Source: a virus (Duplodnaviria; Heunggongvirae; Uroviricota; Caudoviricetes). From it: a stretch of DNA of 64,000 nucleotides. Positions within the stretch are counted from its first letter, which is position 1. Each line of letters begins with the position of its first letter. A program made the position numbers and the translations under genes. The stretch is from the IMG/VR virus record IMGVR_UViG_2937142334_000003. One strand, 5' to 3'. The notes under the pieces were generated by a model. It did no database searches, was not told the origin of the DNA, and saw only the letters and a program-made list of their open reading frames with translations. Below are positions 3,600-56,860 of this stretch, in pieces.

Positions 3600-4100
3600 C
3601 GTTAGTAAGTCGCAACTCAATCAAGACTGTACCGAAAAGGGTCTGGATAAGGCGCTATTATCACCTAGGGTTATGGTGAAAGCTACCCAACAAGGCTATG
3701 CAACGGGTGAAAGATCAGGGCACGTGGAGAGCATGGTGCTAATTCTACAGACTGGGCGTAAACGTTACCGTTAAATAACGACCTCCGCACGGCGGGAAAT
3801 AATTACAACGGCGAACATTGACAATTAAATAAAACTTGTGAACTCTACCAAGGAAGAAGTGAAATGCTTAAAAATTGGATAGCGAACGCAAGGCGGGTTA
3901 TATGGTGGCAGCATATAAATCGTGAGTATGAACCATAAAAGGGGAAGATTAGCCTATTAAGTGGGGCTTGAACTGGACGGGGTTTATACATACAAACACT
4001 GACGACACTTAACGAACACTATTAATTGTTTTTAGAGAGCCTTATCAATACGATAAGACTCTATATAAAGCGATTAATAATAACCGCTGAAGCAAATTAG
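3600..4100 (+). ncRNA. ORF-free, GC-richer segment downstream of the promoter array. Candidate structured non-coding RNA or leader.
   Basis: No ORF >=60 aa. GC visibly higher than flanks. Only tiny peptide ORFs possible. Confidence 0.25.
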
Positions 4101-4115
4101 AAAGGTTTTGATATT

Positions 4116-4319
4116 ATGATGTCACAAAAGGAACTACAAAAATACGCTGAACAGGATTATAAGTTAGTTGATCCTGAATACATTAAGCAATTAGAACGGG
4201 ATAGCGAAAAACTAATCAAGTTTAAGAAGTACAGTATTTTAGCGATATTCATTGCAGTTATTGTTATTGTAGTGACCCTTCCACTTTTACGGGCACTATT
4301 GACGAACTTGCTAAACTAA
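4116..4319 (+). CDS. small protein with C-terminal transmembrane segment
   Basis: ORF track. RBS agaaagg. Confidence 0.5.
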   Translation: MMSQKELQKYAEQDYKLVDPEYIKQLERDSEKLIKFKKYSILAIFIAVIVIVVTLPLLRALLTNLLN

Positions 4320-21289: not shown

Positions 21290-22634
21290 AAATGTCGTGA
21301 TAAATATAAGATGGTGCCCGATAAATCTTTGAGAGGGGGTGATACAAACGATAAGAACAGAAAAAGTTAGATTATATCCTAATAGCATAATGAAACAACA
21401 GTTAAAGGATCTTTGTGACTATCGTCGCTATTGTTGGAACAAGGGTTTGGCGCTATGGAACGATATGTATGATGAGTCTGTCTTGCTAGGCAATAAGAAA
21501 TTACGACCCAACGAAAGGAAGGTTCGTAATGAACTTGTAACTAACAAACAAGATTGGCAATATCTATATTCGTCTCGTTGCCTACAATTAGCGATTTCTG
21601 ATCTTGGAAAGGCTTGGGAAAACTTTTTTAATAAAGCGCAATCCGATTGGGGAATACCCAAATTCAAATCTAAAAAAGCTCCTAAACAAGGCTTCAAAAC
21701 TGATCGAGCAAAGATTGTTAATGGGAAGCTGCGATTGGATAAGCCTAGAGGAATTAAAGAATGGTCGGATATTAAGATTGCAGGTGTAAAATCTCTAGAT
21801 GGTGACTTAAAGGTTGTATCAATTTACCGTGAGAACGGCAAATATTGGGCATCACTGCCTTTTGAAGTGACGATTAAGCATAAGCCTAAAACGGAGCAGA
21901 AGACAGCAATTGATGTCAATGTTGGACACTTTAATACTCCAGGTGGTCAAATTACCATTATTCCAAAGCGATTAGATAGGCTTTATAAACGGATTAAGCA
22001 TTACCAACGCCAATTAGCTAAGAAACGAATTGTTAATGGTAAACAAGCATACCAATCAAATAATTACGTTAAAACGAGAGCCAAGTTACAACGTGATTAT
22101 CGTAAAGTAACTAATATTCAGCGTGATATTATTCAAAAGTTTACTACTAAGCTAGTCGATGATTACGATCAAATCGTAATTGAAGATCTGGATGTTAAAC
22201 AAATGCAAATGAGTCATGTCGCTTCTAAGGGTTTACAACGTTCGTTGTTTGGTTACTTTCGCCAAGTTCTTACATACAAATGCGAGTGGTATGGCAAAGA
22301 ATTGATCCTCGCCAATCAGCATTATCCAAGTACGCAACGCTGTTCACAGTGTGGGTACATTAAAACTGGTGAGGATAAGATTACTCTAGCTGGGAATCAG
22401 AAATATCATACTAAGCATAACGAGTACATATGTTATAAGTGTGATGCAGTAATGGATAGAGATGAAAATGCTGTAATGAATTTATTACAGTTAGCATAAA
22501 TAAGAATAAATATTAACGGGGTGGGCTACATCCTTAAACTATCAGAGTTGGTCAATGTCATTACCCTCTAGTTAGGATATGGGAATACCGATGTTGACGG
22601 TAGTAAATAAAATTAAGAAAGGAAAAGCTATATA
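21290..22634 (+). mobile_element. IS607-family tnpB-only element, copy A. Conserved right end 22518..22634.
   Basis: Left-end motif taaatctttgagagggggtga. Right end nearly identical to copies at 30883..30999 and 59826..59935 (reverse complement). Confidence 0.6.
21339..22499 (+). CDS. tnpB: IS607-family TnpB
   Basis: VRLYPN..LCDYRRYCWN. AIDVNVGHFN, IVIEDLDVKQM, CSQCGY...CYKCDAVMDRDENAVMNL. Confidence 0.85.
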   Translation: MIQTIRTEKVRLYPNSIMKQQLKDLCDYRRYCWNKGLALWNDMYDESVLLGNKKLRPNERKVRNELVTNKQDWQYLYSSRCLQLAISDLGKAWENFFNKAQSDWGIPKFKSKKAPKQGFKTDRAKIVNGKLRLDKPRGIKEWSDIKIAGVKSLDGDLKVVSIYRENGKYWASLPFEVTIKHKPKTEQKTAIDVNVGHFNTPGGQITIIPKRLDRLYKRIKHYQRQLAKKRIVNGKQAYQSNNYVKTRAKLQRDYRKVTNIQRDIIQKFTTKLVDDYDQIVIEDLDVKQMQMSHVASKGLQRSLFGYFRQVLTYKCEWYGKELILANQHYPSTQRCSQCGYIKTGEDKITLAGNQKYHTKHNEYICYKCDAVMDRDENAVMNLLQLA

Positions 22635-29654: not shown

Positions 29655-30999
29655 AAATGGTAGAACATTTGGGCGTATCTATTAAATCTTTGAAAGGTGG
29701 TGAGATAAATGATCCGAACAGAAAAAGTTAGGTTGTATCCCAATACGACAATGAAACAAGCCATAGATGCCTTGTGTGACTATCGACGTTATTGCTGGAA
29801 CGAAGGCTTGGCGTTGTGGAATGATATGTATGAAGAGTCTAAGTTGATGGACAATAAGAAGTTACGACCAAATGAGTACAAGGTCCGTAATGAACTTGTT
29901 GCTAATAAACAAGATTGGCAATATCTATATTCGTCTCGTTGCCTACAATTAGCGATTTCTGATCTTGGAAAGGCTTGGGAAAACTTTTTCGACAAAGCCC
30001 AACCAGATTGGAGTATGCCAAAATTTAAGTCTAAGAAGACTCCAAGACAAGGTTTTAAGACTGACCGAGCCAAGATTGTTAATGGTAAACTCCGATTAGA
30101 TAAGCCAAGAGGGGTTAGTGGCTGGACAGATATTAGGATCTCGGGCGCTAAGCCCCTAGATGGCGAATTAAAAGTCATATCGATCTATCGTGAGAATGGC
30201 AAATACTGGGCGTCATTACCTTTTGAAACATCGGTTGATACAAAGTCTAAAACAGGTCAAAGTACAGCTATCGATGTTAACGTGGGCCACTTTAACTATC
30301 CCGATGGTCAGATTAATGTTTTGCCAGTAAAATTACAAAAGCTCTACAAGCGGATCAAGCATTACCAACGCCAATTGGCCCGTAAAAGGATTACGAATGG
30401 CAAAATGGCAACGCAAAGCAATAATTACATGAAAACGAGAGCCAAGTTGCAGCGCGATTATCGCAAGGTTGTCAACATTCAATCCGATCTTTTACAAAAG
30501 TTCACGACTAAGTTAGTCACCAATTACGACCAGATCGTTATCGAAGATCTTGCCGTCAAGAAAATGATGATGGATCACGTAGCATCGAAGGGTATGCAGC
30601 GGTCGTTGTTTAGCAAGTTTCGTCAAATTCTAACCTATAAGTGTGATTGGTACGGTAAGAAACTAATTCTGGCAAATAGATGTTATCCAAGTACACAGCG
30701 CTGTTCGCAATGTGGACATCTCAAGACTGGCGTGGACAAGATTACTCTAGCCGGCAACCAAAAACATCGTACTAAACACAATGAGTATATCTGTTACGAA
30801 TGTGGTTTGGTTATGGATAGAGATGAAAATGCCGTCATGAACTTATTACGGTTGGCGGCGGCGTAAAAAGAAAAATGCTTTTGGGGTGGGCTACACCCTT
30901 AGGCCATCAGAGTTGGTCAATGTCATTACCCTCTTGTTGGGCTATGGGAATACCGATGTTGACGGTGGTAAATAAAATTAAGAAAGGAAAAGCTATATA
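29655..30999 (+). mobile_element. IS607-family tnpB-only element, copy B
   Basis: Same left-end and right-end motifs as copy A. A ~90-bp stretch (29910..29990) is identical to 21551..21630. Confidence 0.6.
29709..30866 (+). CDS. tnpB: IS607-family TnpB
   Basis: Homolog of 21339..22499. Confidence 0.85.
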   Translation: MIRTEKVRLYPNTTMKQAIDALCDYRRYCWNEGLALWNDMYEESKLMDNKKLRPNEYKVRNELVANKQDWQYLYSSRCLQLAISDLGKAWENFFDKAQPDWSMPKFKSKKTPRQGFKTDRAKIVNGKLRLDKPRGVSGWTDIRISGAKPLDGELKVISIYRENGKYWASLPFETSVDTKSKTGQSTAIDVNVGHFNYPDGQINVLPVKLQKLYKRIKHYQRQLARKRITNGKMATQSNNYMKTRAKLQRDYRKVVNIQSDLLQKFTTKLVTNYDQIVIEDLAVKKMMMDHVASKGMQRSLFSKFRQILTYKCDWYGKKLILANRCYPSTQRCSQCGHLKTGVDKITLAGNQKHRTKHNEYICYECGLVMDRDENAVMNLLRLAAA

Positions 31000-34236: not shown

Positions 34237-34331
34237 AGATATCGTTGATGAGGAGCAACGCAGTTGCGACCCGTTAATAAATCACACAGATCAAATGATC
34301 AATTCAACATTTCAGGATTATTCCTGATTAT

Positions 34332-34404
34332 GGGCTTATAGTTTAACTGGAGAGAACAGTAATCTTCTAAATTACCAACCTTGGTTCGAGTCCAAGTGAG
34401 CCCA
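34332..34404 (+). tRNA. tRNA-Arg (anticodon TCT)
   Basis: Manual cloverleaf: acceptor gggctta/tgagccc, D-arm gttt/gaac, anticodon stem gtaat/attac with loop cttctaa, T-arm cttgg-ttcgagt-ccaag. 73 nt. Confidence 0.8.
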
Positions 34405-34432
34405 TCAACTCTTATGAAAGGGAGGCGGATAC

Positions 34433-35125
34433 ATGTTTGTCCCTGTTAGCGATTATGAGGGATTATATAAGATTAACGAAATTGGAGAAGTTAGATCTGT
34501 GCATAGAATATATAAAGATTCTATCGGCAGAGCAAGAACGGTCAATGAACACGTCGTTAAACCTTGCGTCAATAAATCTGGATATAAAACGCTTGGACTA
34601 TATAAGGATGGAAAAAGAACTACAGAATATGTTCATAAGTTGGTATATGCCTCTTTTAATCATTTAACTCATGAAGAAATAGGTGAAATTGATATCGATC
34701 ATATCGATGGAAATAAACTAAATTGTCATTTAGATAATTTGGAAGCTGTTTCTCACAAAGAGAATATTCATAGAAAAATATGCCGAAAAAATGGACTAAC
34801 AATTCAAAAAGGTAATTCTTATGCCGAAAATTTTCATTATTTTGGACAACAAAATAAATTCTTTAAAATAAGATGTAGAATTTGCGGTAAGCCATTGTTA
34901 AAAAGTGAAAGCGGACTTTGTAGAATTTGTTATGATTCTTACGTAAGGAGCAGCAAAAAGCCTAATAAGCAACAGTTTCTCATTCATCTTCGTAAAACAC
35001 TGGATATTCACGACCTGAGTAAAATATATGACGTAGAAGAGCACAGTGTTAGAAGATGGTTAAGAGAATACGGCATACCAAGCCTCACTGAGCTCAAAAA
35101 GAATCCTGAATTAATTGAAGCGTAA
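34433..35125 (+). CDS. HNH homing endonuclease with NUMOD4-like N-terminus
   Basis: GLYKINEIGEVRSV and IDHIDGNKLNCHLDNLEAVSHKEN. Confidence 0.75.
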   Translation: MFVPVSDYEGLYKINEIGEVRSVHRIYKDSIGRARTVNEHVVKPCVNKSGYKTLGLYKDGKRTTEYVHKLVYASFNHLTHEEIGEIDIDHIDGNKLNCHLDNLEAVSHKENIHRKICRKNGLTIQKGNSYAENFHYFGQQNKFFKIRCRICGKPLLKSESGLCRICYDSYVRSSKKPNKQQFLIHLRKTLDIHDLSKIYDVEEHSVRRWLREYGIPSLTELKKNPELIEA

Positions 35126-35510
35126 ATTGCGAAGAGTGGAAAGGCAATACGTACATTTTGGAAGTACACACTCCCTATATATCTTTTAAATTCATAATAC
35201 AAACACACCTTTCTAATTTTTAATCATCCATGTTTGTCTTTTACAGAGGTTCGACTCCTCTGCTTCGCATAGGGCAGAAATGCCCGAAATTATTAAACAT
35301 TTGCGTGCTGTGTTTAATAATCAAAAATTGTTGATTCATAAATTTTCATTTCTTTTTATCTACTTTTGTCAGCACACTGCGGTTCGATTCCGTTTTGTGT
35401 TATTCCCAGCTAAGTGGTTGGGCTGGGGAACTCCTTTCATGGTTAAACACCTCCGAAATATGAAAGATTAGTTAGTCAGATAAGATATGTGTGGTCTTAT
35501 CTTGATATGG

Positions 35511-35580
35511 TTCGGTATAGCTCAGTTGGTAGAGCAACATTGTACGGTGTAGATATGTGGTTCGATTCCCATTGCCGAAA
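35511..35580 (+). pseudogene. tRNA-like element (degenerate): acceptor ttcggta/tgccgaa and consensus D-arm TAGCTCAGTTGGTAGAGC, but no foldable anticodon or T stem
   Basis: Manual folding fails for nt 27-65. Length 70 nt. Confidence 0.35.
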
Positions 35581-35735
35581 TTCCTAGTAATAGGTTGTTC
35601 CAAATGACGGAAAACGTTTGGAATGTAAAAACACCTAACGTATGTTCAATAGGTTATATTTTCCACATGCCTTTACCTTTACATTTTTCAATTCGATCTA
35701 ATAACGTGTTTGCGCTGGCATGGCACGTTATTAAT

Positions 35736-35818
35736 GCCTAGATAGCGAAGTCTGGTCAAACGCGACGGTCTCCAAAACCGTTCCTTCGGGTTCGGGGGTT
35801 CAAATCCCTCTCTAGGCA
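35736..35818 (+). tRNA. class-II-shaped tRNA (12-nt variable arm, A73) carrying anticodon CCA. Identity ambiguous: Leu/Tyr-like body with a Trp anticodon.
   Basis: Acceptor gcctaga/tctaggc, 3-bp D-stem with 13-nt loop, anticodon stem acggt/accgt with loop ctccaaa, variable arm tccttcgggttc, T-arm ggggg-ttcaaat-ccctc. 83 nt. Confidence 0.55.
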
Positions 35819-35843
35819 TTGATTAAGAAGGAAAGGAGTAAGA

Positions 35844-36419
35844 GTGCATATGCCACTTAATGATGACTTAATTAGAGATATCCTGAAAAATGTTGCTATA
35901 CATGGTGTAAAGGGGAATAACCTTACTAGCATCATAGCTGAACTTCCTGGATATTCAGAAAAGGCAATTTTGGAAACCCTTAACTGGATGGAAATAAATG
36001 ATTTCATTGGTAAAACACAATTAGAAAACTACATTCTATCTTATTATGGACGGTATGTGTTTGGAGTTATCGCCGATGATTCAGTTTGGGAATACGCAAA
36101 AAGCGAGTACACCAAACGAAATTGCAAAACATGGTCTTGGAGTTCTAAGGTTAGAATTGCCACTCAATACCTGAAAAAGTATGATCCTGAGGCTCCTGTA
36201 AAATTTGACTATTTGCCATATAAGAATGAGGAAAAAGGCACCTTATATTACTACAAAGATAAAGAGGGCAATAACATTCCTGCCTTTGGTGATTATAAGG
36301 GCGCATCGATTATGATTGACGACAAGAATGTTGATCGAGTTTTAGAGTTCTTTCCACAAGCTAAGAATAATTTATATGTGGTATATCAAGGTGTGGAATT
36401 TAAGATTAATAATGTCTAA
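35844..36419 (+). CDS. hypothetical protein
   Basis: ORF track. RBS ggaaaggag. Confidence 0.55.
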   Translation: MHMPLNDDLIRDILKNVAIHGVKGNNLTSIIAELPGYSEKAILETLNWMEINDFIGKTQLENYILSYYGRYVFGVIADDSVWEYAKSEYTKRNCKTWSWSSKVRIATQYLKKYDPEAPVKFDYLPYKNEEKGTLYYYKDKEGNNIPAFGDYKGASIMIDDKNVDRVLEFFPQAKNNLYVVYQGVEFKINNV

Positions 36420-36778
36420 CCATTTATAGCTACTGAGATTGCGGTAGATAAGATAGATTGAAGCGTGACTTTTGTAGCTGATAATAAAATTTTTTGAGTT
36501 TTCTTCCAAACTAGTGGATTCTTGATCTTATCAAGATAATCTTTGCCCGTATCTGTAATACTTCCTTCGGCAATCCACATTGGGGTTTTCCCAGCATAGT
36601 GAATCTTATTAGTAACGAGTTTCCCTTTATTCATAATCGCAATGGTATCTAACAATTCACGTCTGGATTTATTATGAAGGTCAGCAAACTTAAACAATTC
36701 CTTTTCATTGACACCAGCAAAGTCTGCTTCTTCATATAAAAATAGTAAATTTCGTACAAATTTTGGATCGAATTTCAT
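36416..36778 (-). CDS. hypothetical protein
   Basis: ORF track. Confidence 0.45.
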   Translation of the reverse strand: MKFDPKFVRNLLFLYEEADFAGVNEKELFKFADLHNKSRRELLDTIAIMNKGKLVTNKIHYAGKTPMWIAEGSITDTGKDYLDKIKNPLVWKKTQKILLSATKVTLQSILSTAISVAING

Positions 36779-36824
36779 GTCTACATCATTCCTTTCTTAT
36801 GATATTTTATCAAAGAAACAATTT

Positions 36825-36896
36825 ACACGAATAATTCAATTGGCAGAATGGTAGCCTCCAAAACTACTCATCTAGGTTCAAGTCCTAGTTCGTGTG
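36825..36896 (+). tRNA. tRNA-Trp (anticodon CCA)
   Basis: Acceptor acacgaa/ttcgtgt, D-arm attc/gaat, anticodon loop ctccaaa, T-arm ctagg-ttcaagt-cctag. 72 nt. Confidence 0.7.
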
Positions 36897-37391
36897 TCGG
36901 GCGATCTGGTAATCTACACCCTGAATAATATAAACGCAAGATTACAAGTCATGCTAGTTATTGGCGGAAGCCTTTGAAAAATAAAAAAGCAGTCTAGAAA
37001 AAGTTCTGACCACTAGTGGGAAGAATGACAGTTTATGCCTTCTGTTAGTAAAATGCTTATTTTATAAAGTTTTTGCGTCTTTAAATTGCTGTTGTAACAG
37101 CGATAAGATAATAAACTTATTTATATAATCTGATTACGGCTCACGTAGGGCTTCGAAATACAGCATAATTACCCACCTCGGTGTTCAAGAGAGCACGTGC
37201 TCAGAGAATGCAAAAGAAATAGGTATGACAGATAAGAAAGAGGCTGTCTTGTTAAAGATTAATCAGATTAACGTGGAGCTTGACTCCTTAATGGCTTGGG
37301 GCGAATTCGTCCTCGTGTTGATGTCTTTTGCTGACAAGTTTCAACCGTCACGTAAAAGCGGAAATGAAACGATACATGTATTATGTTTGGA

Positions 37392-37460
37392 AGCCTTGTC
37401 TGATGGTGCCAGGAAGATTGATTGGGTTCGATCCCCAACAAGGCTATTCTCCTTAATGCG
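37392..37460 (+). other. tRNA-like minihelix: 8-bp acceptor-type stem (agccttgt/acaaggct) plus T-arm gggttcgatcccc, without D or anticodon arms
   Basis: Seen in sequence. Lies in an ORF-poor 37.1-37.7 kb block. ORFs 37225..37524 and 37268..37477 judged spurious. Confidence 0.3.
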
Positions 37461-37973
37461 CAAGGAGAACCCACCAAGTGAATGTGGATATATGCCTAAA
37501 TCATGGCGCTTCGCTCATCTATAAATGAGTGTTGTATTTGGTAGCCCTAATCAAGCTATTAAAAAACCAAGCGGCTCGCGTCATGGCTAACCCCGCGAAA
37601 GTAGAATGAGTGACCATGGCCACGAAAGCCTAAAGGCATTTCTACAAAGTGGGTTGGTGGTAGTCCCACTAATTATTTACGAGGGCAGAATTGCTAAGTC
37701 AATGTCCATCAAAAAGATATAAGCTCTAAGAGTAATCAGACTGATACTTAGCACAGTCAGCAAGCTCTTAACTTATCAGTTCACCATCTAACGTTTCTGG
37801 GTGAATATAAACTTATTGTAGTGAATCTAAAAGTTATATTTGACTGGTATAACATAGTGAGATACGAGACTAATCTTGGTTCGATTCCAAGTGTTTGTGT
37901 CCTATTAGTCAGTGGGAATAATGGGAAGTGAGTCTGGTTAATGTTGGTGCAAATCCAACCCAATAAGTATTAT

Positions 37974-38064
37974 TGCGAAGTAGCTTCAAAACAGGGAAAG
38001 CGTTGGGAATGCGCATGAGAAAAACAAGACCCAGAGATCGCAGGTTCGAATCCTGTCTTCGCAG
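37974..38064 (+). pseudogene. tRNA-like element with ~20-nt expansion in the anticodon region (acceptor tgcgaag/cttcgca, good D and T arms)
   Basis: 91 nt. Stem ttggg/cccag encloses a 22-nt loop containing the palindrome atgcgcat. Confidence 0.4.
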
Positions 38065-38211
38065 TTATAGTAGCAAGCGTCAACGCTTTGAATGTAGTGG
38101 TTGGTATGTAAAGGAGAGCAACGTACTTAAATGTGCGTCTCAGCGATAGGATTAATCAACTATCCTTGTTACTTTGAGAATATGAAGTGATTAATCGTGT
38201 TCTCTAAATTT

Positions 38212-38285
38212 TGCGAATTAGCTCAGTTGGTTAGAGCAGAGGTCTGTTAAACCTTGTGTCATCGGTTCGAATCCGATATTCGCAG
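38212..38285 (+). tRNA. tRNA-Asn (anticodon GTT)
   Basis: Acceptor tgcgaat/attcgca, D-arm gctc/gagc, anticodon loop ctgttaa, T-arm atcgg-ttcgaat-ccgat. 74 nt. Confidence 0.85.
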
Positions 38286-38595
38286 TTGACTTGATAAATT
38301 ATCCCTTCGCGGTGGCAAGGTTAGTGTCTCCACCTAAGTTTGCCGAGAATGGGCTGTTTACAGCGCACGAAGTGGAGTCAGTGCCATTCGGTAATTTGTT
38401 AAGTTTTGGTTCTAGTGTGCCGTCGCTAGAATTGTATTTCACTTAACGGAGCGGAGAGTAAATCCAGTGTGTCCTTGGGAACATAGACTGTAAAACTGGT
38501 GTCTCGAAGTCAACACGAGGGTAGGATGCCTAGTATTGTTGGCATGTGATAGCAGCGGGGTGTAGCTGCGAATATAAATAAATCACCTCCCTAAT

Positions 38596-38667
38596 GCGGT
38601 TATAGTTTAACTGGTAAAACCACAGCCTTCCAAGCTGTTGTCGCGAGTTCGAGTCTCGTTAACCGCT
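38596..38667 (+). tRNA. tRNA-Gly (anticodon TCC)
   Basis: Acceptor gcggtta/taaccgc, anticodon stem acagc/gctgt with loop cttccaa. 72 nt. Confidence 0.85.
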
Positions 38668-38924
38668 TCAGGTTCTCTTAAATGTTCTCCTTAAACACAA
38701 GAAAAGAGCAGATTAATTAACTAAAAAGCTACCCCCTAGCTTGAGGCTTGCGCGACTGATACTAGCAAAGAGACAGCCTCGCCTGAGTGGAAAAAGTTAA
38801 GGAAGTTGTATCAGAACACCCTTAATACCAATGATGTTAGTTGCCGAAAGCATAGTTGCAAATATGTGATTGGATTAAATGCTCATAGTTAGTTTGGTTC
38901 GATGTTTGAGAACTAACATTTTAT

Positions 38925-38999
38925 ACTCCAATAGCTCAGCCTGGTCAGAGCGCACAACTTATAATTGTGATGTCGATGGTTCAAGTCCATCTTGGAGTA
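38925..38999 (+). tRNA. tRNA-Ile (anticodon TAT, reads AUA)
   Basis: Acceptor actccaa/ttggagt, D-arm gctc/gagc, anticodon stem cacaa/ttgtg with loop cttataa, T-arm gatgg-ttcaagt-ccatc. 75 nt. ORF 38879..39193 spurious. Confidence 0.8.
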
Positions 39000-48905: not shown

Positions 48906-49619
48906 ATGAAAACTGTAAGATATAATGGATGGTTATGTGGGAACGATTCATATCCTGATGACACTGCAAAGAAATATAAAGATAAAATAAATAAGGAGAT
49001 CTTTGGTTTTAACCGTTTAGCTAAAGATATTGCTGATAATGAAGATGGATGGGAATACATTCAACAAGAAGTTAGGTTCAAGGGTCAGAAAGTTAACGGC
49101 TTAACGCTAGGACGTAAGGCATGGGATCATTATATAATTATTAACAATCAAAAAGTATTGGTTGAATTTGATGGATCGCAACATTATACGGAGGTTAATC
49201 AGTATTTAAAGGATATTGAATATACAAAAGCGGTTGAAAAACTTGGCTATAAAGTTGTACGCATTCCTTACTTCATTCAACTTGATAGTAGATTAATTAA
49301 ATATTATTTTGACTTTGATTTAAAGAATACTATTGTGGATCATACCTTTCTGCAAGGATTCAGGGTTAATGGTAAAGAAGAAATTTCTGAATTTAAAGGT
49401 ACGGCAGCTAAAGATTTTAAAAATACAATGAAATATAAATCAGTTTTACCAACAGAATATTGTATTTTAGGTTTACAAAGGTTCGAAAAGGAAATTCACA
49501 ATTTTCTAGATGTCGGATTCAATGATGTAGTTCAAGAAATAAAAGAGAGTATTATTTGTAGATGTAAAGATTATGGGTGGCCGGTAGAGTACGGATTACC
49601 TGATATTAAATGGAATTGA
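48906..49619 (+). CDS. DUF559/Vsr-like endonuclease-fold protein
   Basis: VLVEFDGSQHY ... KAVEKLGYKVVRIPY. RBS caaggagag. Confidence 0.45.
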   Translation: MKTVRYNGWLCGNDSYPDDTAKKYKDKINKEIFGFNRLAKDIADNEDGWEYIQQEVRFKGQKVNGLTLGRKAWDHYIIINNQKVLVEFDGSQHYTEVNQYLKDIEYTKAVEKLGYKVVRIPYFIQLDSRLIKYYFDFDLKNTIVDHTFLQGFRVNGKEEISEFKGTAAKDFKNTMKYKSVLPTEYCILGLQRFEKEIHNFLDVGFNDVVQEIKESIICRCKDYGWPVEYGLPDIKWN

Positions 49620-49775
49620 TGTATTACACGTTAATTGGTCGCATTAAAACAAGAATTTTAATGACTAGTTATAGCATGAAAGACTCATGAATACCTCACT
49701 GAGTATTCACTGACTACTCAATTCCCCTCTTTCATGTTATAATATAGATACACAAAAAGCAGGCCCGTTAAAAAG

Positions 49776-50012
49776 ACGGTGGCCATGTTACAGATTAACT
49801 AATAAAAGATCGTCCGTAAACCTGCCAAAGTTAGTAGGACGGTTTTTTATTATGCACAGAATGTGAAAATAAAGGTTAGCAATGCGATAATAAATGTCGC
49901 AAAGGCCAACATTAACATAAGTGCTTGGTAAGCGCTCATGTGCCGATAATCCTTTCATCATGGTGAAGTCCATATGAACCACCTCCAGTCAGGAATCGGC
50001 CACCGTCCTTAA
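49776..50012. other. 13-bp perfect inverted repeats (aaggacggtggcc / ggccaccgtcctt) bracketing a 225-bp segment with a small minus-strand ORF and an internal hairpin
   Basis: Seen in sequence. Confidence 0.45.
49788..49975 (-). CDS. hypothetical 62-aa Cys-containing protein. Start at the ATG after ggaggtgg.
   Basis: ORF track 49788..49982. Confidence 0.3.
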
Positions 50013-50286
50013 AACTTGCCTGCTCTAGTATTATATCATATAGATAAAAAGGGACCCAGGAACCAAAATGATTCCTGGGTTATTTAATAATGGAAATATA
50101 CTATTTAAAATTAGGGAGTTAAATAGTATGTCACTATTATAACATAGTTTAGCCAGACCTTTTGTAAAATGAATGTTTTATCAATTTAGAAAATATTGGA
50201 AAAATAAAAGAAGCTTGATTAGAAGCTTCTTTGTTTCTACCATCTAGGTATCCTTATATGTAAAAGATGAATTGATTATATCATAA

Positions 50287-53200
50287 TTATTTTTTAAGTA
50301 AACCTACAGTCGCAGTAAATCTATCTTGTTGGGATATATCATCTCCAAAAAGGCCATATAGTCTATCAACAAGTTGATCATTATTTTTGTGTGCATCATT
50401 TAATTTTTCTGGTAAAGCAGAATTAGATGCATACATTTGATATATAGAAATATCATTTTTCATAAGGTTTTCGCGTTCATTGATTATATTCTTTGCAGAC
50501 TCTTCCAGAAGTAATTTGTCTTTATCAGACAACTCAGGAAGTGGGAATTTATAATAAACAGTTTCCGTAGAATACCTAATGCCATTTCCAAGACTTCCAC
50601 TAATAATTTGAGTCCAGGCATAATGTAATCTGCTTTGCAAAATAGCAAATAACCAAAGTGGAGCGTCAAAAATCTGGTAAACTTGATCACTAACTATTAC
50701 GTTATCCGATATATAACGCATGGGTACAATCATTCTCTTACTGGTTGTATTTCTAGGTATTGCAAGGCTAGATTTATGTCTGTATCTATCTCTCTTATAA
50801 GTTCCAGGTGTTTTAGAAAGTTTTCTATCTTCTTTTGATACGGTCTGTCTAAAGATTGATATATTCTTTAGTCTGTCCTGAATGAAAATTGGTAATTTAT
50901 TAATATCGCTATCCTTCGGAATATACATTTCATAACTTTGAGATGTATTTTGCTTAAGTAGCTCTTGACCTCCGTAAAATGGATGAAAATATTTTGCGCT
51001 TTCAGGATCACTATCGATTAGCTCGTCATATTTAGACTTTGTAATTCTGTAATTCCCATCATCAAGGAAGACACTTCCAAGTTCGGCTAACGGTAATTCT
51101 GTATTCTTTGACTGTTTAGATAAGTTAATCCAGTCACCCTCAACTAAATATTCATTAATATTTGATACAAGACGAATATTTTGGTTTTCATCAACCAATC
51201 TTTTATTCTGATGCCCGAGTAGAGCTCCTTTTTTATTGAAACCTATGATAACTACGAATACCTGTGCACCGTTATTATCCCATCTGAATGTCTGGTATGC
51301 AAAATCTATTTCTAGTTTGTGTCCCGTTAGGAGTTTCTCAAGATTTAGTGCCTGCACACCTTGCGCTATAGAATTAGAGGACACAAAGCCAACTTTTAGA
51401 TTTCTATTGAATTCGGTCGCTTTTGCAGCTTTCATAAACCAACCAAACACGAAATCCATATTATTTAATCTTTTTAACGCAGATTTTGGGAAATAAGTTG
51501 ACAGACGTGGATGTTCGAATTTACCCTTCTTCGTTTTCCCGCCTTTAAATGGTGGGTTTCCTAAAATATAATTTAAGGAACTTAAATCAACTACATTATT
51601 CCAGTTTAGTTTTAGTGCATCACCCTGAATAATATTCGCTGATTTATGGAGTGGTATACGGACAAAAGGAACACCAGATACGACAGTTTCAGAAAATTCC
51701 TGGTTCATAATATGATCCATCATCCACATACCTGCTCTAGCTATATCTATAGGGTATCGATTGTATTTGGCCTCACCTTTTTCTGATTCATATGGAATAC
51801 CGAGTTCAATACCACTAAACTGATTGACTTCAACCCCAATAAGCGGCTGCCAGTTCCGTGAGTTTTTATCTGAAGATAGATTGCCATATCGTGTAAACCC
51901 AAGTGTAGTAACATCGTTTAGGCCAAAACCGATTTCTGCATTACTTTGGTTGGTGCTAATCAATATTTCTGATACAACTTGATGTTCTAATCTTCTTAAT
52001 TCCCTATAGGCAAGGATTAAAAAGTTTCCAGAACCACAAGCAGGATCAAGAAAAGTAAGTGTTGATAATTTTCTCTTAAATGCGAGTAATTTGTTCGTAA
52101 CGCTTGCTTTCGATTTCTTTATTTTCTCGAATTCTTCTCTCAGATCATCCATAAATAGGTTGTTTATTACCTTCAAGATATTTTCTTCGCTTGTGTAATG
52201 CGCCCCTATTTCATGTCTAGTTCCTTTATCCATTGCACCTTCATACATTGATCCGAAAACTATTGGGTTCACCTTAGACCAATCATCTTTAGATATATTA
52301 TAAAGGTCATCAACTAATTGATCATCCAATGGTTTTACATAAAGGCTAAAGGATTCCTTTTCAGCACCTTCGAAGAGTCCTCCGTCGATATAAGAAACTC
52401 CGGGAGCCAATCTAGCTCTTAATTCGTTATCTTCAGTGTCAACTGCACCGAAAAAGCGCTTGAGTTTTTCTAAACGTAAAGGCGCCTCTATCTCTTTCAG
52501 CCCATGTAAAAAGTCAGTGAAGATATTTTGCTTGTTAAATATTTGAGTGTCATCAGCGAACATTAGGAACGCTAATCGAACAATCATTTTGTCTGCTTGT
52601 TCCTGCGTAAAGCCTAAAGAAATAAGCTTACTATGGATTTGTCCCATTTTTGTTGCTTTATCAGCAGAGATTCTTAAACCTAATTCACGCTTCTTTGTGA
52701 CCTCTTTTTTCAGATCTACAATAGGAGAGATCTCTTTATCGTCTAGTTTTGGAATGATATTTTGAGGCGCTAATAGATAAAATAACTTTTCTAAATTATC
52801 ACCAGAAGTCAGTTTCTCTAAGTTTATAGAAAAATAGTCTAGTCGGTTTCCAAGATAAACTCTTAATTCAACAAAGTTAGTTACGATTTCAAAACGTTGT
52901 TGATTATCTGGATTGCGAAAACGGGAGGCGTAATCAAAAGCTTGATCTATTCCTTTACCACGATCATGCTGGCCTCTTTTACCAAAGCCATAAGTAGAAT
53001 CTTCTACTTCAATAAAACCAACGGGATATATATCGTTAGACTTGTTCGAATCTAGATCCTCCACATTGAATAATCCTAAAATACCATCTGGAATTTTTCC
53101 CGTCTGATCACTATATTCTGTAGCAAACGTTACTGTATCTGATTTTCTAGAGCTTGAATCGGTTTTTGTATAGCCCAGTATATCCACAAATAGATTGCGT

Positions 53201-53382
53201 AAAAAGTCAGGTCGGTGTTGATTTTCCTTCCATTTATAAACCTCATCACCATGAAAAGAGTTAACTAGACGCTTGGCTGCTTCATACTTTTCTTTTGTTA
53301 TCAGTGCCTTGGTATTTTGGGCAGCCATATCGTTTCGTAAATCAACGTCCGAAATGATAGTTCCATGATTAATTATACTCAT
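50287..53382 (-). CDS. gamma-class N6-adenine DNA methyltransferase fused to large N- and C-terminal domains. Candidate Type IIL/IIG (MmeI-like) restriction-modification enzyme or BREX PglX-like methyltransferase.
   Basis: FLDPACGSGNFL (motif I) and GNPPF (motif IV) in the middle of a 1031-aa protein. Possible PD..EVE nuclease-like motif near the N-terminus. Confidence 0.6.
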   Translation of the reverse strand: MSIINHGTIISDVDLRNDMAAQNTKALITKEKYEAAKRLVNSFHGDEVYKWKENQHRPDFLRNLFVDILGYTKTDSSSRKSDTVTFATEYSDQTGKIPDGILGLFNVEDLDSNKSNDIYPVGFIEVEDSTYGFGKRGQHDRGKGIDQAFDYASRFRNPDNQQRFEIVTNFVELRVYLGNRLDYFSINLEKLTSGDNLEKLFYLLAPQNIIPKLDDKEISPIVDLKKEVTKKRELGLRISADKATKMGQIHSKLISLGFTQEQADKMIVRLAFLMFADDTQIFNKQNIFTDFLHGLKEIEAPLRLEKLKRFFGAVDTEDNELRARLAPGVSYIDGGLFEGAEKESFSLYVKPLDDQLVDDLYNISKDDWSKVNPIVFGSMYEGAMDKGTRHEIGAHYTSEENILKVINNLFMDDLREEFEKIKKSKASVTNKLLAFKRKLSTLTFLDPACGSGNFLILAYRELRRLEHQVVSEILISTNQSNAEIGFGLNDVTTLGFTRYGNLSSDKNSRNWQPLIGVEVNQFSGIELGIPYESEKGEAKYNRYPIDIARAGMWMMDHIMNQEFSETVVSGVPFVRIPLHKSANIIQGDALKLNWNNVVDLSSLNYILGNPPFKGGKTKKGKFEHPRLSTYFPKSALKRLNNMDFVFGWFMKAAKATEFNRNLKVGFVSSNSIAQGVQALNLEKLLTGHKLEIDFAYQTFRWDNNGAQVFVVIIGFNKKGALLGHQNKRLVDENQNIRLVSNINEYLVEGDWINLSKQSKNTELPLAELGSVFLDDGNYRITKSKYDELIDSDPESAKYFHPFYGGQELLKQNTSQSYEMYIPKDSDINKLPIFIQDRLKNISIFRQTVSKEDRKLSKTPGTYKRDRYRHKSSLAIPRNTTSKRMIVPMRYISDNVIVSDQVYQIFDAPLWLFAILQSRLHYAWTQIISGSLGNGIRYSTETVYYKFPLPELSDKDKLLLEESAKNIINERENLMKNDISIYQMYASNSALPEKLNDAHKNNDQLVDRLYGLFGDDISQQDRFTATVGLLKK

Positions 53383-53399
53383 ATATCTATAATTACTCC

Positions 53400-53615
53400 C
53401 TATTCCTTTTTTCTAGGATCTTTTTCGCCAGTAATAGCTTCCATTGCTTTAGTGGTTACAACCCATGTGCTTCCAAATTTGCGGATTGAACCTTCTGGAA
53501 ACTTTTCTGGTGATTTTTTATATGCTGTTCTTACATATCCTTCATTTTTATCCCATATTTTAGCTGCTTCTTTTGCATCCATAATATTGGGATTATTTAA
53601 ATCTATTTCATTCAT
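53400..53615 (-). CDS. small HTH DNA-binding protein (possible controller or excisionase-like)
   Basis: KFGSTWVVTTKAMEAITG HTH-like. Directly upstream of the MTase gene. Confidence 0.45.
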   Translation of the reverse strand: MNEIDLNNPNIMDAKEAAKIWDKNEGYVRTAYKKSPEKFPEGSIRKFGSTWVVTTKAMEAITGEKDPRKKE

Positions 53616-53863
53616 TTCTTTCCCCTTATTATTGATATATTAAGTATATAATAGACACGCTTACGTGTAAATGAGTATAAAAAAGAAGTCCAGGACTGGG
53701 AAGATGTCCTGGAGCTCCAATGAAGATGAAAACAGTTACTCTAAATAGTAACTAGGTATATTATACCCTATTAGTCATACTTGATCATAGTATTATTTTA
53801 GTGTTATGACAAAATTGGTGGTTTGTGTACGGCGCAAGGGAACAATTGATAGAAATAAGAAAA

Positions 53864-53916
53864 ATAGACATCTATTAATTACTTCAATGAGGTAATGATA
53901 GATGTCTATTTTTTTG
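53864..53916. terminator. 13-bp inverted repeat (aatagacatctat / atagatgtctatt) followed by a T7 run
   Basis: Seen in sequence. Confidence 0.5.
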
Positions 53917-53975
53917 TTAGGTTCTTACTGTGCAGCGCACAATACTCTAATGATATCATAACATAAAATAGCTAT

Positions 53976-54476
53976 TTAATACGTATTACGCCACCAGTCT
54001 ACTGTAGATTTCTCATTATATATTCTATTCCCAAATTTCCTCATAAACCATTTCACCTGATCTGGGGTATAGCCCCTAAAAACCATGGGTAACTTATTCC
54101 ATTTATTATAAATAGCAAATAGAAATAAAATATATTCTTTACTATCTATATCTTTAGCAGGAATTTCGCTTATCATGACGGGTGATATTGCAGTACCCAA
54201 GGCAGCGAAAGTGTCTAAACTCATTTTATAGGTAAGATGATACCCATCAAGGTTAGTAGTGAATACGAATAAAGCTTGTTTCTTTCGAGGATTGTAAACT
54301 TCCTCTATTTTCCTATTAGCTCTTCGTAATAATTTTTTTGTAGGATTTAGAATTGGTCCTTTCAATTGTAAACATCTCCTAAAAGAAAGCGTGCATATAA
54401 ATATACTTATGACTTGGTGTACTTTTGTCATAATCAAAGTAGTCATGGTAACGACGAATACGTTCCCATTGTGCAT
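53976..54476 (-). CDS. hypothetical protein. Overlaps the downstream frame of 54379..54825 by ~100 nt, so the two may be one frameshifted gene.
   Basis: ORF track. Confidence 0.35.
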   Translation of the reverse strand: MHNGNVFVVTMTTLIMTKVHQVISIFICTLSFRRCLQLKGPILNPTKKLLRRANRKIEEVYNPRKKQALFVFTTNLDGYHLTYKMSLDTFAALGTAISPVMISEIPAKDIDSKEYILFLFAIYNKWNKLPMVFRGYTPDQVKWFMRKFGNRIYNEKSTVDWWRNTY

Positions 54477-54825
54477 TTCTAAATGCTTGTTCTTTAGAAA
54501 TATTCTTTGCTTTTGCTGATTCTAAAGCCATAGCTATCTCTTCTAATGATAATTTTACATCTTCTAGCTCTATTTCTATAATAGCAAGAGTTTGATTTCG
54601 AAGACTTTCTTCAAGTTTTTCTGGTATGTCGCTATCACCATTTAGCATTTTATCTCTTGTTTCGTTCATCAATCTAACAATTTGAGTTGCTTGTTGCTTG
54701 TTATAAATATAGGCAGAATCAACTTTGTTGTATTCTTCTGATCTTAAGAAACCAGCAACCTTACTAATATATGCGCCGGAGTTTTCATCTAAAACACGGT
54801 ATATCTTTTTGCTCATAATAGTCAC
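54379..54825 (-). CDS. hypothetical protein (N-terminal part of a possible Rep-like or regulatory protein)
   Basis: ORF track. Confidence 0.4.
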   Translation of the reverse strand: MTIMSKKIYRVLDENSGAYISKVAGFLRSEEYNKVDSAYIYNKQQATQIVRLMNETRDKMLNGDSDIPEKLEESLRNQTLAIIEIELEDVKLSLEEIAMALESAKAKNISKEQAFRNAQWERIRRYHDYFDYDKSTPSHKYIYMHAFF

Positions 54826-55188
54826 CCTTTAACATTTAATCGAACGTTAGTTTGCATATTCAGTATATCATGCGTACATATGTTCGTAAATAGAATAATA
54901 AAAAAGACATTACTAATTTTAGTAATGTCTACGGGGTGCTAGAAAGTCAGTGGAAAACTTTCTAGTAATTGCAAAAGACATCGGAGGAGTCTTTCACATA
55001 AGTCCATTCTACTAAAATTTAATTATGAATACAATGTACTGATAATTATTCCCTCTCAGTGCAAATTAAATGATCAACTATACGTTAACTAGATTTAAAT
55101 TTTGCCTGAGAGGGAATAAAAACTAATACTTTGGTTAATTGAATTTCATATCCATGATTTTTGAACGAGTTTCTACCTATTATATATG

Positions 55189-55446
55189 TTAATTTTCGAA
55201 CTGTTTAAGCGTCTTCCAAAATATACAAATTAAAGCACATTGAATAATGAATGTAAGTATTACTGGAATATTGACACGTCCAATAACAAATAATTCTGTA
55301 GAGACGAGAGCTAAAACGACAACGCTTAAGCTCATTTGTGCAACAGCAATCCAATGCTTTCGCTTCCTATTAAAAAGTGAAGTAGCAATTATTTGAAATA
55401 GAATAATGAGACTTATAAGTCCCTGCAAAATATATAATGGCTGCAT
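55189..55446 (-). CDS. small membrane protein (2-3 TM)
   Basis: ORF track. Confidence 0.45.
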   Translation of the reverse strand: MQPLYILQGLISLIILFQIIATSLFNRKRKHWIAVAQMSLSVVVLALVSTELFVIGRVNIPVILTFIIQCALICIFWKTLKQFEN

Positions 55447-55455
55447 ATTATCTCC

Positions 55456-56049
55456 TTACCCGAAATCTATAGTATCTAATAGTCTTTCTCGAGACACTTG
55501 GTCTAGCCCCAAATATCTCAAAGTCATTTCTTCTGATGAATGGTTGAGTAATGACATAACTAATCCGATATTATAATTGCTCTGTACGTAAACTCGATAT
55601 GCTCCAGTCTTTCTCATGGTGTGTGTTCCCAGATATGGAATGTCCAGGAGATCTCCAACTTTATGCATAATCGTATAATACCTTCTTTCATCGATATGTT
55701 TATTGGGTCTGGTAGTCGATGGAAATAGCCAGGGCGTAGTTTGATAATAGTTGTTTTCTTCTAACCATTTTTTATAATTCTCTAAATCCTCACGGACAGG
55801 TTTTAAATACAATGTATTTTGCTTGCCCGTTTTCTTATCTTTAATAAATGCGTTTCTTTTTACCTCGCCATATTTATCATAGACATCTTCCTGTTTTAAT
55901 CTGAGTACGTCACTTACTCGAAGTAAGGTTGCCTTTCCAACTTGGAAAATAGTGTAGTTTCTAACACCAGCTCTAAAGTTATTTATTAACGTATCTTGTA
56001 CTTCAGATAACACATAAGAGTCTTTTATAGGTAAGACTAACTGCTTCAT
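55456..56049 (-). CDS. small tyrosine recombinase/integrase (catalytic domain only)
   Basis: LRVSDVLRL (Arg I), GTHTMRKTGA (H-x-x-R), LLNHSSEEMTLRYLG (catalytic Tyr). Start at ATG 56049 after aggtgg. Confidence 0.7.
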   Translation of the reverse strand: MKQLVLPIKDSYVLSEVQDTLINNFRAGVRNYTIFQVGKATLLRVSDVLRLKQEDVYDKYGEVKRNAFIKDKKTGKQNTLYLKPVREDLENYKKWLEENNYYQTTPWLFPSTTRPNKHIDERRYYTIMHKVGDLLDIPYLGTHTMRKTGAYRVYVQSNYNIGLVMSLLNHSSEEMTLRYLGLDQVSRERLLDTIDFG

Positions 56050-56389
56050 AAAACCACCTAAGATAAGTGTTATTTTTTGATATATATAATTATAACACTT
56101 CTTTATTTTACCAGAAAAACAAGTGCTAAAATAGCTTAAATTAGGAAGTGTTATTAGAAACAAATAACACTTCTTTGCTAAAAATAAGTAAAAAGAAAAA
56201 AAGCCCCACATAAAGTGGAGCCATCTTAGGAAGGTAGGAATCTGTATTTGGATTTTCTTAATGTTATTGTATCACATTTGTAAATTAGTGGGAGTCAAAA
56301 TTTTTCAAGGATTATTTTAGACGCTGTGAGCAGTATTATTCTATAGTTTAACTGTTTTATTATAAACGTATGATATAATATTAATGTCA

Positions 56390-56860
56390 AAAAGATTTAA
56401 TGGCGGTGGCGTAATCCACGAAAGGATGGTGGTCACTATGAGCGTAAGCTCGTGGTACTCTCCTCTATCCGTAAGAAGGGAGTGCGCCGTAAAGTTTGTC
56501 CTTAATTGGACTTTTGCAATCAAGTTGCCCTTGGGCAGTTGGGACGATTGTAACGATACTAGGCTTAGTCGGAATATTTCTGGCTCTACGCCTATTGTTA
56601 CTCAGTGTTGCTTACTGTATTGATGCAGTGGGCACAGTGATCCGAGCTGTAAAAAGGGTTGTGTTGACGTGGAAATCTCCACCGAATGACACAAAATTAG
56701 ACAGAGATGCAAAAGAAAAACACCGCCTATTGGACGTGGGACGGTGTCTTCTGAAGTCTTTGTTTAATATAAAATAAATGACGTTAAGTAACCTGTCACC
56801 GCTAATAAATCTTAGCGACATCAGAAAGGGCTGTGTTGGTAGCGCAGCTCTTTTTGTTTA
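56390..56860 (+). other. GC-richer block with four mutually overlapping ORFs on both strands, ending in a terminator hairpin (56826..56860). Non-coding RNA or a small membrane protein (56496..56777).
   Basis: Composition visibly differs from flanks. No frame is clearly preferred. Confidence 0.3.

Follow-up and report, generated by a model that had tools for sequence, protein, structure and literature searches.

We analyzed a 64,000-nt stretch of DNA from IMG/VR record IMGVR_UViG_2937142334_000003 (the window; positions are counted from its first letter), in which a block of minus-strand genes at 49776-56300 had drawn attention. Within this block we found a two-gene cassette that encodes a small helix-turn-helix (HTH) protein and a protein of 1031 amino acids (aa) that resembles the restriction-modification (RM) enzyme MmeI. 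The cassette and its parts are as follows; all of the open reading frames (ORFs) that the original prediction placed on the minus strand are indeed there.

50182..53678, minus strand: accessory RM cassette, a true insertion/deletion (indel) by comparison of its flanks with those of relatives; it holds the promoter/operator, the HTH_59 gene, the MmeI-like RM gene, and a terminator.
53643..53671, minus strand: sigma-70-like promoter, TTTACA-N17-TATACT (promoter scan and reading of the sequence).
53655-53668, minus strand: 14-nt palindrome ACACGTAAGCGTGT in the promoter spacer, a putative operator (hairpin scan).
53400..53615, minus strand: 71-aa HTH_59 protein, a putative repressor or controller (Pfam HTH_59, 1.3e-15).
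50287..53382, minus strand: 1031-aa MmeI-like single-polypeptide RM enzyme (ORF, Pfam, PADLOC).
52663-53382, minus strand: residues 1-240 of the enzyme, nuclease-like domain.
52363-52662, minus strand: residues 241-340, helical spacer.
51133-52362, minus strand: residues 341-750, N6-adenine (N6A) methyltransferase with an insertion of about 45-70 aa at 471-540.
50530-51132, minus strand: residues 751-951, target recognition domain (TRD).
50290-50529, minus strand: residues 952-1031, C-terminal bundle.
50207..50232, minus strand: intrinsic terminator of the RM operon (terminator scan; RNA fold −14.9 kcal/mol, z −4.2).

Read along the minus strand, the order is a backbone terminator, the promoter with its palindrome, a ribosome-binding site (RBS), the HTH_59 gene, a GGGAG RBS, the RM gene, and the terminator.

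Judging from its sequence, the 1031-aa protein is probably an MmeI-type single-protein RM enzyme that the cassette carries as cargo. The original prediction had noticed its DPACGSGNFL and NPPF motifs and had suggested an MmeI-type architecture, with a nuclease-like N terminus, a methyltransferase, and a C-terminal TRD, and this is what the database matches show. Pfam reports MmeI_Mtase (1e-59), MmeI_TRD (3e-39), MmeI_hel (7e-11), and MmeI_C (2e-6), all above cut-off. PADLOC's REase_MTase_IIG model (Type IIG) matches across residues 31–1013 (1.4e-181). MmeI itself (PDB 5HR4) is matched by phmmer over residues 240–1015 only (2.6e-113), so that the similarity runs along the spacer, the methyltransferase, the TRD, and the C-terminal domain. 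Motif I (LDPACGSGNFL) and motif IV (GNPPF) are intact, and both align with the motifs of MmeI, a gamma-class N6A methyltransferase. There is no second methyltransferase or specificity-subunit gene: the cassette contains the HTH gene and the RM gene only. A homologue of the enzyme on the chromosome of Limosilactobacillus oris (P0003) is 76% identical overall. Ahead of the gene for P0003 is a small gene (L001, 9201-9900) that is 41% identical to a backbone gene of the window (46219-46488), and about 7 kb away is a Hol_Tox module (L001, 20116-20527) that has 92% DNA identity to the one beside the cassette. These two neighbors suggest that there was past exchange between the plasmid family described below and the chromosome.

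We compared the locus with about 20 related molecules (L numbers), which were retrieved by using the nearby recombinase, the RM protein, or DNA similarity; breakpoints were located with blastn. The edges of the cassette are exact, at 50181/50182 and 53678/53679. The left breakpoint (50184-50188) is common to L010, L011, L016, L017, L018, and L019, and the right breakpoint (53676-53680) is common to L009, L011, L016, L018, and L019. In L011, the slot is empty and the flanks abut, with window position 50184 joined to 53680. The microhomology at the junction is merely 2–3 nt (TA or TAT).

The contents of the slot vary. The HTH_59 gene and the present MmeI-like enzyme are found in the window and in L008. 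In L010 (which is LN906635.1, or pI) and L015, the slot is taken by a canonical enzyme of the MmeI family (961 aa in L010, 934 aa in L015), in which the MmeI_N domain is complete and the ExK motif is present, plus an 81-aa membrane protein. L017 and NZ_CP030090.1 have the HTH_59 gene, a 1577-aa Type ISP enzyme, and the 81-aa gene. And in L016, L018, and L019, the slot holds about 635 bp with a small uncharacterized gene, whose product is called as 216 aa in L018 and is 170 aa long in the other two. At six or more loci, at least four types of cargo and an empty site lie between identical flanks, which makes this a defense or cargo hotspot. We conclude that 50182-53678 is a self-contained two-gene cargo cassette of 3.5 kb at a recurrent plasmid hotspot. 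In another relative (L021, 12943-17630), the gene for the Type ISP enzyme has split into three ORFs (950, 245, and 381 aa), a sign that this RM cargo is decaying.

The original prediction had a different unit in mind, namely an integrative cassette or satellite that spans 49776-56300, perhaps with direct repeats or att sites near its ends. We found no direct repeats or att-like sites at 49776 or 56300 or at the indel edges. The block has no boundaries as a unit, and its recombinase is independent of the cargo. The repeat search around the block yielded short matches only, a mixture of chance similarities and shared promoter-like motifs (ATGTTATAATAT and TATGATATAAT). A 49-nt inverted repeat (71%; 49992-50040 and 56369-56417) links the leaders of two outward-facing genes for small membrane peptides and matches no indel edge. 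We also considered integron-like capture by the recombinase, and rejected it: the cassette does not have attC-like ends, and the recombinase is three genes away.

Our reading of the N-terminal 240 residues is that they form a genuine restriction-type nuclease domain, with glutamate in place of the canonical lysine. When the nine closest homologues were compared with 103 canonical MmeI N-terminal domains, hhalign gave a probability of 93.9% (E = 1.5e-7). An AlphaFold2 (AF2) model that was built from a 112-sequence alignment (predicted local distance difference test, pLDDT, of 87) has beta-strands at 83–87, 100–106, and 122–126; D99 opens the second strand, and E125 and E127 close the third. (A model from a 9-sequence alignment had a pLDDT of 52.6 and was discarded in favor of this one.) D70 and E80/K82 of MmeI have the same placement on the strands (PMC2731913). 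By these comparisons, the protein appears to have an N-terminal PD-(D/E)xK endonuclease domain.

When 1.84 billion cluster representatives were scanned for the N-terminal domain with HMMER, only 124 relatives were found, mostly proteins of 1000–1090 aa. Among 90 aligned sequences of this long form, PDGxLGxF...IELKD lines up with the window's PDGILGLF...IEVED. The triad is D-E-K in 80 of the 90, D-E-E in 9 (including the window's clade), and Q-E-E in one. In the canonical homologues, the lysine position is K in 95 of 103 and E in the other 8, with no other residue. A position that is only ever K or E fits a tolerated catalytic variant better than it fits decay. Furthermore, homologues as distant as 45% identity all retain D99, E125, E127, E89, and a DQA motif. 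Relative to the L. oris homologue, the N-terminal 240 residues have a pN (nonsynonymous) of 0.17 and a pS (synonymous) of 0.84, which is similar to the constraint on the methyltransferase and the TRD. (We report pN and pS instead of dN/dS because synonymous sites are saturated.) Glutamate or glutamine at the lysine position is also found in BamHI (E-x-E) and BglII (E-x-Q), which shows that nucleases with such a site can be functional.

The TRD gives a hint of what the enzyme might recognize. In MmeI, the specificity positions for bases 3, 4, and 6 are E751, N773, A774, E806, R808, and R810 (PMC2731914), which correspond to R877, D899, Q900, G932, G934, and R936 of the window's enzyme. An R...D pair is the combination that switches MmeI to G at position 3, and arginine at the R810 position correlates with a purine at position 4 (PMC2731914). 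As a partial guess at the target site, R877/D899 would specify G at position 3 and R936 would specify a purine at position 4. The register of the alignment is confirmed by subfamily members P0008–P0010, which have the classical KxD pattern at the position-6 residues. All six residues are the same in P0003 from L. oris, so a shared target is plausible. They are different in the sister copy P0002, which is 98% identical to the window's enzyme across residues 1–650 and only 48% identical across residues 700–1031, where it is 80% identical to P0004. By sequence, P0002 is a clean natural swap of the TRD and C terminus.

An HTH gene upstream of the RM gene had also been predicted. It is 17 nt upstream and in the same predicted transcription unit. 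The HTH_59 protein aligns to both of the winged-HTH halves of TraN/AM32 of pIP501 (PDB 6G1T, E = 2e-5), a repressor whose binding sites are inside promoters (PMC6158623). L008 and L017 both keep the palindrome, without any change, ahead of their HTH_59 genes; the promoter region also matches exactly in L008, and in L017 it has a single-base difference. In both L017 and NZ_CP030090.1, the HTH_59 gene and its leader precede the Type ISP enzyme, with 97% DNA identity. By analogy to TraN, the simplest model is that a single-domain HTH_59 protein would bind, as a dimer, to the palindrome in its own promoter. A scan of genome contigs with the HTH protein found a single locus. The locus L035 (1658-12216; ENA ERZ27234144 k141_3976) has a homologue of the HTH_59 protein (74% identical) encoded directly downstream of a Cas9 gene. 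The ORFs that follow this homologue are of 824, 477, and at least 973 aa, and they have no precomputed Pfam match and no PADLOC match; this may be an uncharacterized defense cassette with the same type of leader.

Several observations weigh against reading the cassette as an active RM system with its own controller. Pfam's MmeI_N model scores under its threshold (18 bits vs. 27), and a Foldseek comparison of the N-terminal AF2 model with the PDB gave no significant match. The catalytic lysine of the PD-ExK motif (K82 of MmeI) is replaced by glutamate, giving a D99/E125/E127 triad that is invariant in the nine closest homologues. K82 is fully conserved in the characterized MmeI family, and mutating it abolishes cleavage; mutating the catalytic residues of MmeI likewise kills cleavage (PMC2731913). 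Given E127, the nuclease activity is putative. And because only D99 and E125 of the three equivalents to D70, E80, and K82 are kept, we describe the enzyme as MmeI-like rather than as a strict member of the MmeI family. As for the regulator, homologues of the HTH_59 protein (64–80% identity) are encoded elsewhere upstream of a ParB-methyltransferase gene, upstream of terminase genes, and beside Cas9 ahead of uncharacterized large ORFs. These varied contexts suggest that HTH_59 proteins are general small regulators of accessory and late operons in these bacteria. A specific role as controller at the RM cassette is putative.

The genes and other features around the slot are listed next.

55456..56049, minus strand: 197-aa catalytic-domain-only tyrosine recombinase, backbone (Pfam Phage_integrase, 3e-18; PHROG integrase).
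55189..55446, minus strand: small membrane protein of 85 aa, part of the backbone (its translation has three hydrophobic segments).
54379..54825, minus strand: 148-aa backbone gene (a separate gene of 144–148 aa in relatives).
53976..54365, minus strand: 129-aa backbone gene with a TTG start (the mechanical ORF reaches 54476), conserved in L009, L010, L015–L017, and L019 and in annotated plasmids.
53680..53720, minus strand: hairpin that terminates the 129-aa backbone gene and forms the hotspot's right flank (RNA fold −17.4 kcal/mol, z −4.2).
49850..50045, minus strand: type I toxin-like module, the left flank, with a 29-aa Hol_Tox peptide at 49850-49939 (including the stop codon) and an rli28-like RNA at 49870-50045.
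48174..49638, both strands: second accessory slot at the point of strand convergence, with a YbjQ_1-domain gene at 48320-48799 (minus) and a DUF559/Vsr-like nuclease gene at 48876-49619 (plus) (Pfam, relatives).

The recombinase, 85-aa, 148-aa, and 129-aa genes are kept in essentially all relatives, whether or not they have an RM gene, and also in L011 with its empty slot. The exceptions are L018, which does not have the 148/129-aa pair, and the group L020–L024, which is arranged differently downstream of the recombinase. As had been predicted, the recombinase is a catalytic domain only. It aligns with the catalytic domain of XerA (4a8e), and the catalytic residues (R, HxxR, H, and Y) are all present. 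Its nearest relatives outside of plasmids are about 78% identical and are encoded by a gene of the core chromosome in many Limosilactobacillus species, where the context is fixed and non-mobile (YjbR, integrase, unknown). As the recombinase is near the convergence point, a role in multimer resolution is a reasonable guess. The window also encodes a second tyrosine recombinase, which is full-length (15165-16205, 346 aa) and XerC/XerD-like. In relatives L022 and L023, there is a 350-aa integrase beside ParE, PemK, and Fic toxin modules.

The predicted membrane protein was also found. Homologues of 84–86 aa follow the recombinase in L009, L010, and L015–L019; the 85-aa protein has no family match above curated cut-offs and no credible match in the PDB. 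What the original prediction saw as two overlapping Rep-like ORFs, perhaps one frameshifted gene, are the 148-aa and 129-aa genes. These are always two genes with a short gap (13 nt in the window), so they are not a frameshifted gene. Neither protein has a match in Pfam, PHROG, NCBIfam, or PADLOC or a credible match in the PDB, and neither shows similarity to Rep. The terminator hairpin that follows them is kept at the junction in L009, L011, L016, L018, and L019. There are two other intergenic hairpins in the backbone, at 55032-55133 (39-nt arms, 74% complementary) and at 53860-53913 (perfect 16-nt arms); L011 lacks a 170-bp segment (53799-53967) that includes the latter.

On the left flank, the rli28-like RNA scores 70 bits in Rfam (gathering score 45) and the Hol_Tox peptide matches Pfam at 1.5e-11. 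We rejected the ORF at 49788-49982 as spurious, as the toxin-like module occupies this stretch. At the other end of the block is a second gene for a small membrane peptide (56369-56777, plus strand; a 93-aa ORF that is kept in L010), which faces outward, opposite to the Hol_Tox gene. Its leader is 71% complementary, over 49 nt, to the leader of the Hol_Tox gene. The second slot is missing from L011, L016, L018, and L019 and is 99.5% identical in L008. We considered whether its DUF559 nuclease might supply a nuclease function that the RM enzyme had lost. We rejected this idea: the nuclease is absent from beside the L. oris and P0005 homologues of the enzyme, and it sits in a separate indel.

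The replicon is, by DNA similarity and gene content, a member of the Limosilactobacillus reuteri megaplasmid family (ATCC 53608 pI; PLSDB rep_cluster_2483), although the molecule's own replication genes were not seen in the window. Megablast against PLSDB gave mosaic matches of 85–96% identity to complete L. reuteri plasmids; these are NZ_CP065541.1 (132.6 kb), NZ_CP102426.1 (128.8 kb), and LN906635.1 (138.5 kb), along with smaller ones. Matches to these three cover large parts of 1-24000 and 40000-64000, and the gene order is the same. According to its description (PMC4667477), the pI megaplasmid carries RepA/ParA, a prophage that is incomplete, genes for nucleotide salvage, and tRNAs, and 98.8% of its genes lie on the leading strand. 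The gene content of the window is in keeping with this: it includes replication genes of phage type, PnuC, thymidine and thymidylate kinases, tRNAs, a transfer-messenger RNA (tmRNA), and several TnpB elements. The phage-like context that had been predicted is thus half right: many phage-like genes are aboard and IMG/VR lists the same molecules as viral, but the replicon belongs to a plasmid family.

Up to about 48 kb, the genes lie on the plus strand; beyond about 50 kb, they lie on the minus strand, and the sign of the GC skew flips at about 50 kb. The point where the coding arms and the GC skew converge is the probable replication terminus. The RM slot and the second indel border the Hol_Tox module exactly at this point. 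At the other end, window 1-4300 is poor in ORFs (none of at least 90 aa), with a GC skew of −0.57 in the first kb that is positive after about 2 kb; this may be the region of the replication origin.

MmeI-family genes are found in 146 PLSDB plasmid records (E ≤ 1e-50), many of them from Lactobacillaceae, and in 5 of 50,697 phage records. A near-identity search of GenBank phages turned up only the L. reuteri phages LR1 and LR2, over 380 bp, and a scan of viral contigs with the 399-aa PgpA-like neighbor protein found no match. The window's tmRNA gene (39659-40036) has the tag ANNHRVTALAA; plasmids and phage-like elements do not usually carry such a gene. The tmRNA gene is within a tRNA cluster (34331-40438) with at least 9 genes by Rfam, or 6 by ARAGORN, including tRNA-Ile(tat) and two tRNA-Trp. 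The four TnpB/IS605-type ORFs (PHROG "transposase") are at 13853-15004, 21339-22499, 29709-30866, and 60168-61118 (with 61048-61731), and one copy adjoins a serine-recombinase-type transposase. Matches to Rfam's "Transposase-1 RNA" trail three of the TnpB ORFs (22539-22597, 30904-30962, and 59856-59914); these are probably omega-RNAs or the ends of the elements.

We propose that the enzyme would bind an asymmetric site via its C-terminal TRD and methylate one adenine on one strand, using S-adenosylmethionine and the NPPF motif, which would mark the plasmid and host DNA as self. The N-terminal PD-(D/E)xK-fold domain would cleave incoming DNA that lacks the modification, at a set distance from the site. 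Cleavage would protect the host and the plasmid from phages, and it might also penalize loss of the plasmid. This makes a defense payload, as was originally predicted, a reasonable reading of an MmeI-type enzyme. A dimer of the HTH_59 protein, bound to the palindrome in the promoter spacer, would probably autoregulate the operon and limit the dosage of the enzyme. Cargo at the slot would be exchanged among related plasmids by recombination in the conserved flanks and not via the nearby recombinase.

We tentatively put forward a broader reading, which as a whole we think has the odds against it. The HTH_59 gene and its palindrome promoter could be both a portable controller, of a new HTH class, and a conserved 5' recombination arm for swapping enzymes (MmeI-like or Type ISP) at the terminus hotspot. 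Such a controller would set the dosage of a single-polypeptide RM enzyme, for which expression of R and M cannot be separated. In Type IIL enzymes, the D-E-E site would be an active substitute for PD-ExK that recurs in nature. A swap of the whole TRD, as in P0002, would reprogram the specificity in one step.

The main alternative to the RM reading is that the nuclease is dead and that the protein is an orphan strand-specific adenine methyltransferase, which shields the plasmid from a host enzyme of the same specificity or has an epigenetic role. We consider this unlikely. It would account for E127 in place of the catalytic lysine, and MmeI relatives that lack PD-ExK showed no endonuclease activity (PMC2731913). 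The plausibly shared target with the chromosomally encoded P0003 would also fit, given the six specificity positions (PMC2731914). However, the N-terminal domain is under purifying selection as strong as that on the methyltransferase and TRD, its putative catalytic residues and DQA motif do not vary among homologues as divergent as 45% identity, and the lysine position is restricted to K or E. More doubtful still is the idea of an infectious replicon, a phage or phage-plasmid, with the enzyme as a viral weapon that degrades the DNA of the host or of competitors during infection. Besides the IMG/VR listing and the phage-type replication genes, nucleotide-salvage genes, tRNAs, and tmRNA, a relative (L021) has endolysin and tail-like genes nearby. 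But close relatives were deposited as stably maintained circular plasmids with RepA/ParA and merely an "incomplete prophage" (PMC4667477), we saw no structural genes in the 64-kb window, and MmeI-family genes are rare in phage records and common on plasmids.

Two other explanations seem very improbable. If the entire block at 49776-56300 were an integrative island or satellite, moved by the small tyrosine integrase with the HTH protein as its excisionase, then it would make sense that a recombinase with intact catalytic residues is 2 kb away and that the HTH protein matches a PHROG family labeled as excisionase. This is inconsistent with the presence of the recombinase and its neighbors even in the relative with an empty slot, with the absence of direct repeats at either set of boundaries, and with the recombinase being closest to core chromosomal genes in a non-mobile context. 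Furthermore, the HTH gene is co-transcribed with the RM gene and accompanies a different RM enzyme in L017. Least probable of all is that the protein is the methyltransferase part (PglX, DrmMI, or YeeA-like) of a multi-gene bacteriophage exclusion (BREX), defense island system associated with restriction-modification (DISARM), or helicase-dependent system; PglX of BREX was the other option in the original prediction. There are weak partial matches to PADLOC's DrmMI (6e-32, C-terminal half) and PglX (E = 0.0056) and to NCBIfam's PglX model BREX_1_MTaseX (17 bits). The latter is far below its cut-off of 500, whereas the best full-length match is to Type IIG; together with the strong Pfam and 5HR4 matches, this is why we consider the body of the protein to be MmeI-type and not BREX. 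Also, the cassette has just two genes, with no PglZ, BrxC, DrmA/B, or helicase adjacent, and ORFs of the size of PglZ or BrxC are absent from the window. Its other ORFs of at least 400 aa are a RecD-like helicase (756 aa) and three of 422–494 aa, which are a DnaB-like helicase, an exonuclease, and one without a PHROG match.

That Type IIG/IIL RM genes can be the cargo of mobile elements at hotspots was already known, and our results do not overturn the current understanding. They extend the picture of defense hotspots to Gram-positive megaplasmids. The noteworthy variants are the D-E-E site within an extended N terminus, the TraN-like leader that is common to two unrelated RM enzymes, the natural TRD swap, and the location at the terminus. 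For the engineering of gut lactobacilli, these plasmid-borne and phage-like elements are both a practical barrier and a tool. If the enzyme is active on the L. reuteri megaplasmid, then its methylation motif would need to be matched for efficient transformation. Also, these loci form a natural series, with one leader ahead of different single-chain RM enzymes, one enzyme body with swapped TRDs, and a change from lysine to glutamate in the catalytic site. The series could inform the engineering of Type IIL specificity and show how one-polypeptide RM enzymes spare their own host.

Among known systems, the window's enzyme is most readily compared with the MmeI family of Type IIL/IIG enzymes (MmeI and NmeAIII, PMC2731913; 5HR4, PMC4833311), which have the same order of five domains. 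They share the DPACGxGNFL and NPPF motifs, they have no separate methyltransferase or S subunit, and the specificity positions of the TRD align cleanly. Characteristic of the MmeI family are adenine methylation on a single strand, cleavage about 20/18 nt from an asymmetric site, and a need for two sites. The window's enzyme is longer than MmeI (1031 vs. 919 aa). Its N-terminal domain exceeds that of MmeI by about 85 residues and does not reach the threshold of Pfam's MmeI_N model, its methyltransferase has the insertion of about 45–70 aa, its triad is D-E-E instead of D-E-K, and a co-transcribed HTH gene is upstream. In length it is like the other long-form MmeI-like enzymes (about 1000–1090 aa; compare DrdV, PDB 7LO5), of which 80 of 90 keep the lysine that is glutamate in the window's clade; phmmer did not detect similarity between DrdV itself and the window's enzyme. 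Within the plasmid family, the pI gene LRATCC53608_pI065 ("putative DNA methyltransferase") and the Type ISP cassettes (NZ_CP030090.1) occupy the same slot, downstream of the 129-aa gene. The pI protein is about 30% identical to the window's enzyme and has D-E-K and the full MmeI_N domain. The Type ISP cassette has the same HTH_59 leader, but its enzyme is a helicase-driven RM enzyme, unlike the window's.

The slot is similar to the defense hotspots of P2 and P4 (Rousset et al. 2022, PMC9122126), which likewise have fixed flanks and interchangeable, mostly defensive, cargo that includes RM genes. Unlike those hotspots, its carrier is a Gram-positive megaplasmid, it is located at the convergence point or terminus, and its cargo is mainly single-polypeptide RM enzymes. 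The arrangement of the cassette also resembles that of RM systems with C proteins, in that a small HTH gene precedes the RM gene in a predicted common transcription unit and has a palindrome in its own promoter. Classical C proteins have an XRE-type HTH and time the expression of R relative to M. In contrast, the window's HTH protein is TraN-like (HTH_59) and single-domain instead of XRE-type, and R and M are one polypeptide. A further parallel for the regulator is TraN of pIP501: TraN-type winged HTH proteins repress promoters by binding inside them (PMC6158623), and the palindrome of the cassette is within its promoter.

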